Below, piece after piece: positions 7,141 to 32,377 of a stretch of 64,000 bases of DNA. Origin of the DNA: Coraliomargarita sp. Lineage in GTDB: Bacteria > Verrucomicrobiota > Verrucomicrobiia > Opitutales > Coraliomargaritaceae. Each line of letters begins with the position of its first letter. The stretch's first letter is position 1. Below the pieces are notes generated by a model. The model saw nothing but the letters and a program-made list of their open reading frames with translations. It did not search any database and was not told the origin of the DNA. Location of the stretch: positions 2,336,001 to 2,400,000 of the forward strand of contig OZ244160.1 of assembly GCA_965216325.1 (NCBI GenBank), written 5' to 3'. The position numbers and the translations under genes were made by a program.

Positions 7141-8298
7141 TTACTTGAGCACTTGCGCAGTGCGTGCGGTCAAATTCGGTGCGCCTTGCTTGAGCGCGGT
7201 TGCCAGATCCGTTCCATCGGGCGTAATACTGGTGACCTTACAATTTGGAAAACGTTCCTGCACCGAGTCGGCGGCGTCTACTTCTGCTTTGCCCGCAAGC
7301 ACAATGGTGCGTGTGTTGGTCTTACCCGCCGCGGTGACGAGTGCAAAGGGGCCCTTCCCGGCGAGTGAGCTGCTGTCGAACTTACCTTCGCCAGTGAGAA
7401 TGAGTTCTGCGGCGGACACCTTGTTGTTCAGGTCGAGCCAAGACTCCACCAAGTCGAAGCCGGCGAGGAATTCTGCACCGCAGGCAACTTTGAGACCAAA
7501 GCCAATGCCTCCCGCTGCGCCCGCGCCGGGTGCGTCTTTGAGTTCAATGCTTTGGCCAAAGTGTTGGCAGAGCAAATCCGCTAGGCGATTGGCTTCCGCA
7601 TCAAAGCTTTCAAGCTCATCGGGCTGCAGGCCTTTCTGCGGTCCGTAGACGGCAGCTGCGCCGCGTTCGCCGAGTAGCGGATTATCAACGTCGCAGGCGA
7701 TATAGATGGGCGGGAGTTTAAAATCGAAGAATCCGGTAATTGACTCCACCTGTGACCATTTTTCAGGGACGATCGCATCGTCTGTGGTTGGGAATTGGAT
7801 GCCGAGTGCTTGCAGGGCGCCGAGTCCGAGATCGCTGGTGGCGCTGCCGCCGATGCCGAGGAGGATGGCTCCGGCGCCTTGGGCGGTCGCGATGCGGATC
7901 AGCTCGCCGACGCCGCGTGTGGTGCAGTGCTTTGGGTGGCGTTGTTCGTTGGGCACTTGCTCGAGTCCTGCCGCTGAGGCCATCTCAATGATGGCCAGTT
8001 TGCCGAGCGCGGTGCCGAACTTGCGGCGCAGTGATTCACTGAGAGTGTTGAGTTCGACCCATCCGAGGGGTGCTTCGACATCCTGACCCAGTGGTCCGCA
8101 GACGGTATGGTGCTCGATGTAGCCATTGGCGGCGTTGGTCAGAATCGGGCAGAAGCCTTCACCTCCATCGGTGAGCGGCGCTTCGGTGATCTGAACAGAG
8201 TCGCCCAGTGTTTGGCGGACCCCGACAGCCGCAGCTGAGCAAGCCTCGGCAGCAGTCATGGAGTCTTTAAATTTATCAAATGCGAGCAGGACGTTCAT
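7141..8298 (-). CDS. glxK: Glycerate kinase (GlxK/GarK family)
   Basis: [56 protein letters not shown] and GKGP motifs. Confidence 0.9.
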
Positions 8299-8307
8299 TT
8301 AAAGGCA

Positions 8308-8355
8308 TGAACATGAACATCGAACTTCGAACGTCCAACACTGAACGTCGAATGA
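8308..8355. repeat. Short tandem heptamer repeat (YGAACRT-like)
   Basis: Units tgaacat cgaactt cgaacgt ccaacac tgaacgt cgaatga. A reverse-complement copy lies at 10249-10289. Confidence 0.75.
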
Positions 8356-8380
8356 AGTGGATTTTAGTCTGCTTTTCGGT

Positions 8381-8411
8381 GTGGTGCGCCTCGAGACGCG
8401 GCTGCGCTACC
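8381..8411. repeat. GTAG-type REP, family B (reverse orientation)
   Basis: gtggtgcgcctcgagacgcggctgcgctacc is the reverse complement of the REP starting at 16129, with 1 mismatch. Confidence 0.8.
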
Positions 8412-8476
8412 TTGAACTAAACCGTAGATGACATGGGCGTTTATCAGGAGCACGGAAGTGCTATGATGATAAACTT

Positions 8477-9565
8477 ATGCAAAACCCCACATCATCTACA
8501 CGGACAACTAAGAACGCACTGGGCACAGTAATCAAGCTTGGCATTGACGTGCATGCGAGCACCTACGTGGTGGTCATGAAGATCGATAGCAGCGCCCCTT
8601 CACGCGCGAAGCGCATGAAGCCTGATATCTTCCTTCGATGGATTAAGCAGCTGAGCACTCAGTGCGAGCAGTTGCAAAGTTGCTACGAGGCCGGTCCTTT
8701 TGGTTACAGCCTGCACCGCAAGCTCAAGGCGATGGGCGTGAACAACCACGTAATCCGCCCGATCAACTGGGACACTCATGGTAAGAAGGTAAAGACCGAC
8801 GCGCGTGATGCGTTGCAAATGGTCTTGAGTCTGGACGGCTATCTGCGGGGCAATGACCGCAGCTTCAGTGTCGTGCGTGTGCCCAGCGAGCAAGAAGAGC
8901 GTCACCGCAGCCTAACCCGGCAGCGTGAAAGCTTCGTCAAAGAACGTGGCCGTGCGGCCAAGCGTGGTAAGAGTCTGGGACTGTATTACGATCAACCCTT
9001 ACCCAGCGGCTGGTGGAAGCCGCGCAAATGGATGCAGCTACTCGAACAGCTCGACGATTTTTTGATCAGCCTGCTGGAGCCACTGCGGTTAAACTGCCTG
9101 CACTTTAGCGAGCTAATCAGCAACATCGAAGAACGTATCGAAGCGCTCGAGCCGGAACGGGTGCTGCCTAAAGGCATGGGGGTGGTCCTCTATGAACAGA
9201 TCGAACGTGAGGTCTGCAACTGGAAGCGATTCAACAACCGCAAGGCGGTCAGTTCCTTTACCGGACTGTGCCCAAGCGAAGACACTAGTGCAAATCGGCG
9301 TTTCCAGGGCTCGATCAACAAACACGGCAGTCCCCGCCTGCGGCATATGCTACAAGAGTGCGCCTGGTTATTGATCCGGTGGAATCCCGGCTACAGTGGG
9401 GTGCGTAAATGGCAGGCCAAGCTCAGCGACGAGACCACCAGTAAGGCGACCCGCAAGAAAATTGCCGTGGCCATCGCCCGGCAGTTCGCCGTGGACTGGT
9501 GGCGCATACGCACTGGCCAATGCAGTCTCGAAGACTTCGGACTGATAAGCAGACAAAACCCATAA
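8477..9565 (+). CDS. IS110 family transposase/recombinase (RuvC-like DEDD plus Tnp20 domain)
   Basis: GIDVH, CYEAG and KTDARDA supply the D-E-D-D residues. The C-terminal SFTGLCPSEDTS..SINKHGSPRLR motif carries the putative catalytic Ser. Confidence 0.95.
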   Translation: MQNPTSSTRTTKNALGTVIKLGIDVHASTYVVVMKIDSSAPSRAKRMKPDIFLRWIKQLSTQCEQLQSCYEAGPFGYSLHRKLKAMGVNNHVIRPINWDTHGKKVKTDARDALQMVLSLDGYLRGNDRSFSVVRVPSEQEERHRSLTRQRESFVKERGRAAKRGKSLGLYYDQPLPSGWWKPRKWMQLLEQLDDFLISLLEPLRLNCLHFSELISNIEERIEALEPERVLPKGMGVVLYEQIEREVCNWKRFNNRKAVSSFTGLCPSEDTSANRRFQGSINKHGSPRLRHMLQECAWLLIRWNPGYSGVRKWQAKLSDETTSKATRKKIAVAIARQFAVDWWRIRTGQCSLEDFGLISRQNP

Positions 9566-9627
9566 GTCCGAACCAACGCTAAAGGCCTTCACCCTCTGAT
9601 TTTAACGTTCTTTTGCAGTTTTCCTTT

Positions 9628-9785
9628 GTGCGGAGTGAGTCTGACCAAGCCCCTGTTGCCAACACAACGATTTTGTAGAATAGGCCACTTCGCCACCAAG
9701 CTTTTGAATGACCCAATGGATAGGTCATAGTGTGCTCTTCTGAGAAACACTCAGAAACACGGATAGCAGGTTATCCCGGATCATC
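9628..9785 (+). ncRNA. Predicted bridge RNA (seekRNA) of the IS1111-type element
   Basis: Two stem/internal-loop/hairpin modules found by eye. Loop 1 carries AAGCCCCT (9647-9654) and TGTAG (9674-9678), matching the target. Loop 2 carries GTCAT (9724-9728) and ATAGCAG (9763-9769), matching the donor junction. Boundaries are approximate. Confidence 0.75.
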
Positions 9786-9881
9786 GAAACTCCGAGGCCA
9801 TGCGCGGTGGACGCTCAAAGACGATTGCAATCAAAACAAACCACTTATCTTATGTAAAAACACTCACACGCTTCTACACTC

Positions 9882-9887
9882 TTGACA
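9882..9887 (+). promoter_or_regulatory. Outward-facing -35 hexamer (TTGACA) at the IS right end
   Basis: Perfect TTGACA 16 nt before the end of the AG core. On circularisation a weak -10-like TGACAT (8429-8434) would lie 17 nt downstream. Confidence 0.5.
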
Positions 9888-10017
9888 GAAACGAACATAG
9901 CAGGGGCTTTGCTTGCGAAGCCCGCCGCGTCAGAGTGATCTTCTGAGACGCCGTTCTTTCCTGACTGAGGGCGTCGCATACAACGCCTCGACACTAGCTT
10001 TAAGGCCGTTCATTGAG

Positions 10018-10153
10018 TTCTCCTCCTTGTTTAAGGAGGAGTGCCCTGAGCTTGTCGAAGGGGGAGGTGGTTTGTTCCTGCGTTGGAAGTCTTCTCGGAG
10101 AGCAATCACCCCGACCGGGCAAGCCGGTCACCCCTCCTTGAAAAAGAGGGGAG
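10018..10153. repeat. Palindromic intergenic repeat (ctcctcc..ggaggag / ccctcc..gaggggag family)
   Basis: Multiple short hairpins, with a nested ccctgagcttgtcgaaggg. A related copy lies at 20814-20950. Confidence 0.6.
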
Positions 10154-10231
10154 CTGTTGAGTGGCGCTTGCGATACAGTGCGTAGTGGGGGCTGTGCTGG
10201 GTCAGAGTTGTTCTTCGCGCGCGCTGTGCAC

Positions 10232-10266
10232 AAAAAAACGCTGAACACCATTCGATGTTCAGCGTT
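10232..10266 (-). terminator. Probable intrinsic terminator of rne/rng
   Basis: Stem aacgctgaaca / tgttcagcgtt next to an A-tract on the + strand (U-tract on the - strand). Confidence 0.65.
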
Positions 10267-10304
10267 GAAAGTTCGACGTTCAACGTTCGCTAGTTGCGCA
10301 GCAA

Positions 10305-12059
<1,755 letters not shown>

Positions 12060-32257: not shown

Positions 32258-32377
32258 CCGTAGGGGCGTTGCTTGCCGTTTCGACAGGCTCAAGGCCCCG
32301 AGTCTATCGAGGGGCGGCGCCCGCTCAGAGCAAAAGCCCTTCAGCTTAGGCGGGCTTCGCAAGCAACGCCCCTACGG
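32258..32377. repeat. GTAG REP doublet; empty homolog of the IS110 target REP
   Basis: ccgtaggggcgttgcttgc..gcaagcaacgcccctacgg, with a nested ttcgacaggctcaaggccccgagtctatcgagggg insert. Confidence 0.85.

Follow-up and report, generated by a model that had tools for sequence, protein, structure and literature searches.

How does an insertion sequence (IS) come to lie at one exact dinucleotide of a repetitive extragenic palindrome (REP)? The question is raised by a locus in the window, the whole 64,000-nucleotide stretch analysed here (Coraliomargarita sp., contig OZ244160.1, positions 2,336,001 to 2,400,000), where an IS110-family element sits between a glycerate kinase gene and an RNase E/G gene; coordinates are those of the window unless another source is named. 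An earlier note, made from the letters alone, had proposed that this element targets a GTAG-marked REP and that its insertion point can be recovered. Our answer, in which we place high confidence, is that an IS110-family element with the IS1111-type layout was inserted at the AG of the GTAG forming the foot of a REP hairpin, most likely by RNA-guided recombination. The argument runs from the element and its nine identical junctions, through the context of REPs and a REP-associated tyrosine transposase (RAYT), to a conserved RNA structure and the covariation of guide and target across relatives, each of which can be observed directly. The insertion and its target comprise the following parts.

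8428-9903, + strand: insertion sequence, with nine full copies in the genome; relatives keep identical ends in other targets
8422-8427, + strand: left fragment of the split REP, CCGTAG, with GTAG at 8424-8427 and the shared core AG at 8426-8427
9904-9926, + strand: right fragment of the split REP, the hairpin GGGCTTTGCTTGCGAAGCCCGCC
9967-9992, - strand: degenerate inverted partner REP, with a 19/26 match to the consensus that 0 of 2000 shuffles of 9927-10010 reach

The element is intact and 1,476 bp long, equal to 8428-9903 with one AG counted; because AG ends the left flank and the IS alike, the junction is ambiguous by 2 bases, and the alternative reading is 8426-9901. Nine full-length copies are present in the 3.06-Mb single-contig genome (G000), eight of them identical and one with a single C>A at IS position 1331. 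They range over 0.90-2.98 Mb on both strands, and contig depth over the IS relative to its flanks in two runs of the organism (10.0x and 8.6x) is what about nine copies would give. At eight copies the last bases of the left flank are GTAG and at one they are GAAG, the right flank starts with GGGCTT at all nine, the orientation of the IS relative to the REP is uniform (9/9), and the outer flanks are unrelated between copies. This is site-specific insertion of the kind that marks the IS110 family, with AG at both junctions in 9/9 copies and no other repeat. The tabulation of flanks over the genome copies that the earlier note had suggested as a check returned the same termini and the same REP junctions in all nine. 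The REP halves beside the IS vary, some reading GGGCTTTGCTTGCG..., others GGGCTTCGCTTGCGG... or GGGCTTTTCAAGCG..., and at three copies (904179, 1109331, and 2070236) extra sequence follows GGGCTTTGCT(T/C)GC and breaks the hairpin. Since one sequence of 1,476 bp recurs with differing REP halves beside it, the REP pieces belong to the target and not to the IS.

Joining CCGTAG directly to GGGCTTTGC gives the predicted empty site (in wider context, AACCGTAG directly followed by GGGCTTTGCTTGCG). The reconstruction offered in the earlier note proved exact, in that CCGTAG (8422-8427) plus 9904-9926 forms a 29-mer with one mismatch to the reverse complement of 32349-32377 (position 11, T versus G; checked by script). 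For the junction of the window copy, an uninterrupted paralogue matches at 30/30 positions. The copy at G000 1552474 adjoins a 292-bp tandem array whose units carry the left flank straight into GGGCTTTGCTTGC, with 52/52 matches across the junction, and by this match the array units are taken to be the paralogous empty site for that copy. The nine copies and the uninterrupted paralogous sites together bear out the claim that insertion occurred at the AG of GTAG with AG left on both sides. Thus, we conclude that the insertion point is the AG of GTAG at the 5' foot of the REP hairpin. The array itself (G000:C1:1554230-1555444) consists of 5.6 units that are 96% alike, with one REP 5' half per unit; two units are one G shorter (GTAGGGCTT) and hence would not match the guide described below.

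The target is a genuine REP. Its hairpin core occurs at 80 places in the genome at ≤3 mismatches, and GTAG precedes 58 of these; with a looser pattern, the count of REP 5' halves is about 97, and there are 23 convergent doublets whose members are separated by 8-28 nt. The degenerate partner arm that had been suspected at about 9969-9992 is real, at 9967-9992 on the minus strand, and because this partner is confirmed, the IS occupies the left member of a convergent REP doublet. A partner REP matching at ≥19/26 positions lies beside 6/9 IS copies. The palindrome is thus tagged by GTAG and present in many mostly intergenic copies and doublets, and the genome also carries a cognate RAYT gene flanked by REPs, an uninterrupted and apparently intact 191-aa open reading frame (ORF) scoring 89.5 bits with NF047646 against a cut-off of 80.

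L124 1411-1986 (G000:C1:1680034-1680609): RAYT gene, a 191-aa ORF with a REP doublet on each side

The doublet flanking the RAYT gene consists of GTAGGGGCTTTGCT(T/C)GCGAAGCCCGC and an inverted variant with GGGGTGTT. GTAG-tagged REPs have been described in Verrucomicrobia (PMC3733652). The genome holds 16 Y1_Tnp matches, some of them identical copies, which suggests that several IS200/RAYT-like families are present. Window 32258-32377 is more than a plain pair of REPs: between a REP 5' half (CCGTAGGGGCGTTGCTTGC) and a full inverted REP lie about 72 bases of another repeat, and this inner sequence recurs after the REP half at the IS copy at G000 904179.

Occupancy of the REP family by the IS is selective. 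Across the 97 REP halves, the heptamer after GTAG is GGGCTTT in 31, GGGCGTT in 27, GGGCTTC in 12, and GGCCTTT in 11, with rarer forms making up the rest. The 10-mer GTAGGGGCTT, which matches the predicted guide of the element, occurs uninterrupted 34 times compared to 8.5 expected from base composition, and 30 of the 34 occurrences are in REP context. Guide-matching 10-mer sites are occupied in 9 cases and free in 34, compared to 0 occupied and 54 free among REP halves with any other heptamer (Fisher p = 0.0004), and none of the 27 copies of the GGGCGTT subfamily is occupied. GGGCGTT is also the heptamer of the REP at 32349-32377, which differs from the reconstructed site at a base covered by the guide; because this single difference lies under the predicted guide, that REP is a relative of the target and not a site. 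The four non-REP copies of GTAGGGGCTT are all unoccupied, which is too few to show avoidance. The idea in the earlier note that the many GTAG REPs form a reservoir of intergenic landing sites stood in part. There are 34 free 10-mer sites, 28 of them outside ORFs of ≥150 aa (such ORFs cover 87% of the genome), but only the GGGCTT subfamily qualifies, with 0/54 of the other variants used; the reservoir is real, but as judged by guide match it comprises about one in three members of the REP family. A pyrimidine at position -5 was also considered as a site preference and was rejected, since its presence at 9/9 occupied sites is not distinguishable from the REP background, where a hand count finds it at 29/34 free sites.

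The match between occupied sites and guide refers to a predicted RNA in the non-coding tail of the element, whose parts are as follows.

9627-9817, + strand: predicted bridge/seekRNA in the 3' non-coding region, with a fold conserved in 17 relatives
9647-9654, + strand: predicted guide for the top target strand, AAGCCCCT, the complement of the AG core and GGGCTT
9655-9668, + strand: inner hairpin between the target guides
9673-9678, + strand: predicted bottom-strand target guide TTGTAG, identical to the left target plus core, 19 bases after 9654
9763-9769, + strand: ATAGCAG, a copy of the last seven IS bases within the invariant GGATAGCAGG, a probable donor-binding segment

In the minimum-energy fold of the single sequence, both guides form the unpaired sides of one internal loop, with a long closing stem and a small inner hairpin, and the target module folds with a z score of -2.1. 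An RNAalifold consensus from an alignment of 17 relatives (A2) contains 32 pairs, 25 of which show a compensatory change in ≥1 sequence; it consists of an outer stem, a stem that closes the target loop, and a three-way region bearing the invariant GGATAGCAGG. The ATAGCAG motif is invariant in 17/17 aligned relatives, and a motif bearing it lies downstream of the gene on the coding strand at 58 of 74 loci for which sufficient sequence was available, compared to 0 on the other strand. It is likely, from these folds and matches, that the tail encodes a guide RNA by which the element finds its REP site.

This interpretation was further supported by comparison of guides and targets across relatives. 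A contig scan with a three-protein alignment recovered 79 related loci, mostly Verrucomicrobiota/Opitutales by title, which together with the window element and two siblings (L038 and L022) gave 82 elements that were scanned for ends. Both ends were cleanly called in 26 elements, which were scanned for guides; 18 had a locatable guide, and removal of one near-duplicate (L057) left the 17 sequences of A2. The other 56 elements were duplicates, had no called end, or were mis-called Candidatus Synoicihabitans loci, where the end pattern, which required TTGAC, took an internal GGATAGCAG for the end (L040, L041, L045, L082, L088, and L093, all left out of A2). These six Synoicihabitans copies, of a relative that is 55-65% identical, have uniform sequence after the internal GGATAGCAG.

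Over 10 aligned positions, the guides of the 17 relatives match the reverse complement of AG plus their own right flank at a mean of 7.65/10, compared to 5.85 for non-cognate flanks (those with another hexamer), and 0 of 20000 permutations reach the cognate mean, although this figure overstates independence because the relatives are kin and fall into only three main target classes. Contiguous matches of ≥8 counted from the core are found in 11/17. In the bottom-strand guide, positions -4/-3 read GT, CA, or AA and track the target class. The nearest relative (72% aa identity, in another genus) shares the target, its flanks being GTAG|GGGCTTCA, and carries TGAAGCCCCT. The sibling L038, present as a single copy in this genome, has 46% aa identity to the window protein and shares the termini and AG core, but its target is CGTCAAG|GAGGGGAG and it carries CTCCCCTCCT at the homologous place. 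That target is itself repeated, as CAAGGAGGGGAG occurs 18 times in the genome compared to 0.5 expected. L038 (G000:C1:2768048-2772097, with the IS at about 1425-2959 in locus coordinates) is inserted in the palindromic repeat CCCCTCCTCGTCAAG|GAGGGGAG. In the same intergenic region as the window element, at 10020-10160, there are copies of a second palindrome (CTCCTCCTTG...AAGGAGGAG and CCCCTCCTTGAAAAAGAGGGGAG), none of which matches the sibling's guide exactly.

On a broader reading, which we consider slightly more probable than not, a Verrucomicrobiota clade of IS1111-like elements has a constant donor module, made up of the IS ends, the AG core, and the invariant GGAUAGCAGG, and moves between host repeat families by altering no more than about 8-10 bases in a single RNA loop. 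Two differently programmed siblings would then live in this genome, one directed at the RAYT-type REP, the other at a CCCCTCCT...AGGAGGGG palindrome unrelated to it. If this is true, these elements would form a natural set of orthogonal bridge-RNA recombinases with a common donor, and IS and REP families would be co-evolving in one genome.

The protein encoded by the element and the arrangement of its ends were assigned as follows.

8477-9565, + strand: transposase/recombinase gene, 362 aa, identified by Pfam, NCBIfam, and profile alignment
8433-8444, + strand: left sub-terminal inverted repeat ATGGGCGTTTAT, with a 9/12 match to the right repeat
9887-9898, + strand: right sub-terminal inverted repeat, read from the sequence

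The identification of the element as IS110 in the earlier note holds. The transposase matches PF02371 (Transposase_20; 52.9 bits, E 4.9e-14) and PF01548 (DEDD_Tnp_IS110; 29.2 bits, cut-off 29), as well as NCBIfam NF033542, 'IS110 family RNA-guided transposase' (E 4.7e-40), at 137.8 bits, just under the cut-off of 140. It thus has the DEDD N-terminal domain, the C-terminal Transposase_20 domain, and the conserved serine of the IS110 family. D24, E71, D108, and D111 are the DEDD candidates and S271, in GLCPSEDTSA, is the candidate catalytic serine; all are invariant in the protein alignment A1. A three-sequence profile aligns to the transposases of solved structure from ISCro4 (E 3.5e-4) and IS621 (E 0.044) over the serine-bearing domain, where the S271 motif aligns with GLtPrryeSG of both, and a weak N-terminal segment of the same profile aligns GIDV and KTDA-DA to ISCro4. 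A phmmer search of the solved structures with the single transposase sequence gave no match. All plasmid-borne IS110-family transposases listed are <32% identical to the window protein; an IS4321-family transposase has 22.8% identity over 91% of the length (E 6e-6), and those named for ISEc45 and ISSso6 have 27-29%. Protein similarity does not settle the subgroup, and we assign no subgroup to ISEc45 or ISSso6. The codons of S271 and A272 are at 9287-9292, giving TSA where relatives and the family motif carry glycine. The nine near-identical copies argue for recent activity of the element despite this motif.

The layout of the element appears to be of the IS1111 type and not of the IS621 type, as judged by the long 3' non-coding region, the sub-terminal repeats, and the order of the guides. 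There are 49 non-coding nt upstream of the ORF and 338 nt downstream; when the AG is counted in the left end, 7 bp extend beyond the left repeat and 3 bp beyond the right one. A downstream non-coding region, 7/3-bp extensions, and a GL-P----S motif are given as marks of the IS1111 group (PMC11187229; PMC11208160). The window element has the downstream region, the 7/3-bp extensions, and the motif, together with the predicted seekRNA order and the overlap at the cut that characterize this group. Its sub-terminal repeat, at 9/12, is weak compared to the IS1111-group standard of 11-13 bp with near-perfect matching; siblings L038 and L022 have perfect sub-terminal runs of 7 and 9 bases, respectively, at the matching offset.

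Several observations weigh against RNA-guided recombination by this element or against parts of the account, besides the kinship of the relatives already mentioned. The NF033542 score is about 2 bits short of the cut-off, and the residue following the candidate serine is A (SA), where SG is usual and is found in the siblings. The predicted fold of the full 194-nt RNA is not more stable than those of shuffled sequences (z -0.53), Rfam 15 gave no match in 8300-10300 at E up to 1, and among the runs listed with the locus none was of RNA, so that RNA expression and ends are predicted only. The bottom-strand guide is short, as only GTAG is common to the eight regular sites and one copy is at GAAG. 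The contiguous guide match is ≤6 in 6/17 relatives, which thus fit poorly the expectation of a loop that pairs with both target strands and covaries with them (L062, 1; L070, 0; L095, 1; L102, 4; L104, 4; L115, 6). No clean complement of the left IS end and its core was found in the RNA, where the window element has a partial one, GTCAT and then AG, and the siblings have TCAACT; the donor loop is a tentative assignment. A sigma-70 consensus scan of 8300-10050 found no promoter in the integrated copy. Neither an empty allele nor a circle junction was found in the contigs of four runs, although contigs drop rare forms. Likewise, the metagenome contigs gave 0 exact matches to a left-flank 22-mer and 0 to a right-flank 24-mer, and in the closest species-level relative (G002, 79% identity at the glycerate kinase end) there is no synteny beyond the gene and no comparable site. 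Contigs of the two runs of the organism hold the occupied allele only, with no joints, and because contigs lose rare forms, this absence of joints says nothing either way.

Three other explanations were weighed against guidance by RNA. The transposase protein itself may read the shape or palindrome of the REP hairpin, with the matches in the tail being incidental, as older literature proposed for recognition of REPs by protein (PMC1525189). The palindromic target, the position of 6/9 copies in REP doublets, and the lack of occupation at the 0/4 non-REP occurrences of GTAGGGGCTT all agree with this idea, but with 39 REP and 4 non-REP sites available, chance alone would put 9/9 copies in REPs about 38% of the time by our own arithmetic. 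Moreover, copies 904179, 1109331, and 2070236 lie in REPs that are broken by extra sequence after GGGCTTTGCTTGC, and because these broken hairpins are occupied as well, the full hairpin is unneeded. REP variants that keep the hairpin and differ at guide-covered bases are unused (0/54), and over three target classes the tail segment changes with the target among elements whose proteins and ends are related. We consider recognition by the protein improbable.

We give even less credence to two accounts in which no REP was chosen as a target nine times over. If the REP pieces belonged to the mobile unit, either as REP-like ends of the IS or because the IS rides in a doublet moved by the RAYT, then REP halves should accompany every copy, as they do, and the genome does have an apparently intact RAYT gene above its cut-off. 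This account is nevertheless already largely refuted and very improbable, since the flanking REP halves vary where the 1,476 bp do not, only 6/9 copies have a partner REP, and uninterrupted REPs join GTAG straight to GGGCTT. In addition, relatives with equal termini (ATGACATGGG ... ATAGCAG) lie in quite different flanks, and these unrelated targets fix the ends of the element at ATGACATGGG...ATAGCAG. Similarly slight is the chance that the nine copies arose by segmental duplication or by homologous recombination between REPs and not by repeated transposition; REPs would supply the homology, and one copy does adjoin a tandem array, but the sequence beyond the REP is unrelated at the nine loci, which range over 0.90-2.98 Mb on both strands.

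By analogy with IS621 and IS1111 elements, RNA expression, circle formation, and the chemistry of RNA-guided insertion would proceed in the following way. The element would be excised as a circle in which the right and left ends are joined at a single AG. An RNA of about 190 nt from 9627-9817, expressed together with the transposase, would bind the recombinase. Its target loop would pair with both strands of the REP, AAGCCCCU with AG plus GGGCTT on the top strand and UUGUAG with the bottom strand of TTGTAG, while a second module carrying AUAGCAG, the invariant copy of the right end, would hold the joined IS ends. The DEDD/serine recombinase would then swap strands at AG, which would leave AG on both sides and no duplication. 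Insertion at the AG turns GTAG into GCAG beside the hairpin and could put the REP beyond the reach of its own transposase. Two further features bear on how the transposase might be expressed.

9882-9887, + strand: outward-facing TTGACA, the would-be -35 half of a circle-junction promoter, 16 bases from the IS end
8439-8474, + strand: leader hairpin directly 5' of the start codon (fold of 8428-8490: -18 kcal/mol, z -3.0, equalled by 0/200 shuffles)

In a circle, TTGACA would stand at a 17-base spacing from TGACAT in the left end, and by analogy the two may form a junction promoter like that of IS621. The TTGACA box is found at equal distance from the right end in L038, L022, and L039, that is, in both siblings and the nearest relative; the would-be -10 box, TGACAT, is poor, without A at position 2. 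In the fold of 8428-8490, the start codon is paired within the hairpin of the 49-nt transposase-mRNA leader, and it is possible that this hairpin exerts translational control, as reported for the leader of ISPpu9.

The element or a close strain also appears to occur outside this genome. A contig from marine metagenome run X5 contains 1,332 bases of the IS (8585-9916) with one mismatch, plus 13 bases of REP and without the flanks of the locus; therefore, by this match, the IS or a close strain is taken to be present in the sea sample of that run. The genes on either side of the window copy and two further repeats near it complete the locus.

7141-8298, - strand: glycerate kinase gene (Pfam Gly_kinase, E 6e-101)
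10305-12059, - strand: RNase E/G gene (rng)

Just upstream of the insertion, 8308-8360 and 8379-8415 belong to two more families of short repeats. Each family has numerous near-identical copies (85-97%), both in this genome and across several genera related to it, and the second (GCGCTACCTTG...) is also found next to the REP that holds the copy at G000 1552474.

REP-targeted IS110 elements and their guide RNAs are already established, and there is no new category here. The statement in the earlier note that REP targeting is known for some IS110 members such as IS621 is in print, as REPs were described in 2006 as IS targets with the IS110 family as their main users, and the REP target of IS621 was shown experimentally (PMC1525189). 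What the present case adds is, in part, an extension of this behaviour to a marine member of the Verrucomicrobiota whose protein is <32% identical to the plasmid-borne IS110-family transposases listed; among the matches listed there was no paper on Verrucomicrobia or Opitutales with IS110, IS1111, or bridge RNA. The genome also provides a clean internal test of guide specificity, in which the REP subfamily matching eight guide bases is used (9/43 sites) and other variants are not (0/54), and it explains a feature of the genome, as 34 further sites are open to the element. Finally, the two siblings in one genome and the 17 relatives with common donor ends form a case of natural retargeting, and such a series helps to define programmable RNA positions in systems of the IS1111 type, on which less work has been done than on IS621.

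IS621 was a fitting comparison in some respects and not in others. The window element resembles it in being RNA-guided under our reading, in a core dinucleotide common to donor and target, and in having a REP as natural target. IS621 belongs to the other group and differs in that its bridge RNA is in the left end upstream of the gene, its guides are in the opposite order, and its sub-terminal repeats are 2-3 bp, and the similarity of the proteins is marginal (profile E 0.044); the layout of the window element is instead of the IS1111 type. The wild-type target of IS621 is ATCAGGCCTAC, with a CT core (PMC11208160). Read on the other strand, this target begins with GTAG, and its core would be the complement of that AG; because it starts with GTAG and has its core on the AG, we infer that the cut falls at the same GTAG dinucleotide in distant members of the family.

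Closer parallels are found in Pseudomonas. All copies of ISPpu9, ISPpu10, and ISPa11 (7/7, 7/7, and 6/6, respectively) lie at one REP position in a fixed orientation, called a 'type 1 association' (PMC1525189). ISPpu9 recombines at an AG common to the IS end and the target and prefers REP clusters (PMC12288879), and ISPa11 has a seekRNA downstream of tnp with the top-strand match first (PMC11187229). The window element shares the fixed REP position and orientation with all three, the AG core with ISPpu9, and the predicted downstream RNA and guide order with ISPa11. The host phylum differs, the related loci being Verrucomicrobiota/Opitutales by record title. It inserts 4 bases into the REP, directly after GTAG, compared to after base 6 for ISPa11 and after base 9 for ISPpu9, and an extra module like Ssr9 was not found in the window element.

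In IS1111-family seekRNAs, the top-strand complement comes first and the bottom-strand match second, with an overlap at the cut (PMC11187229). The downstream non-coding region, the 7/3-bp extensions, and the order and overlap of the guides align the window element with ISEc11, ISKpn4, and ISPst6; it differs from the IS1111 family in a transposase of 362 aa compared to 330-350 aa, in SA in place of SG/TG, and in its weak 9/12 repeat. Between ISEc11 and ISXne4, the RNA stems are kept and the target-matching bases are swapped, which amounts to natural re-direction (PMC11187229), and the same relation, with stems kept and guide bases swapped, is found between the window IS and its sibling L038.

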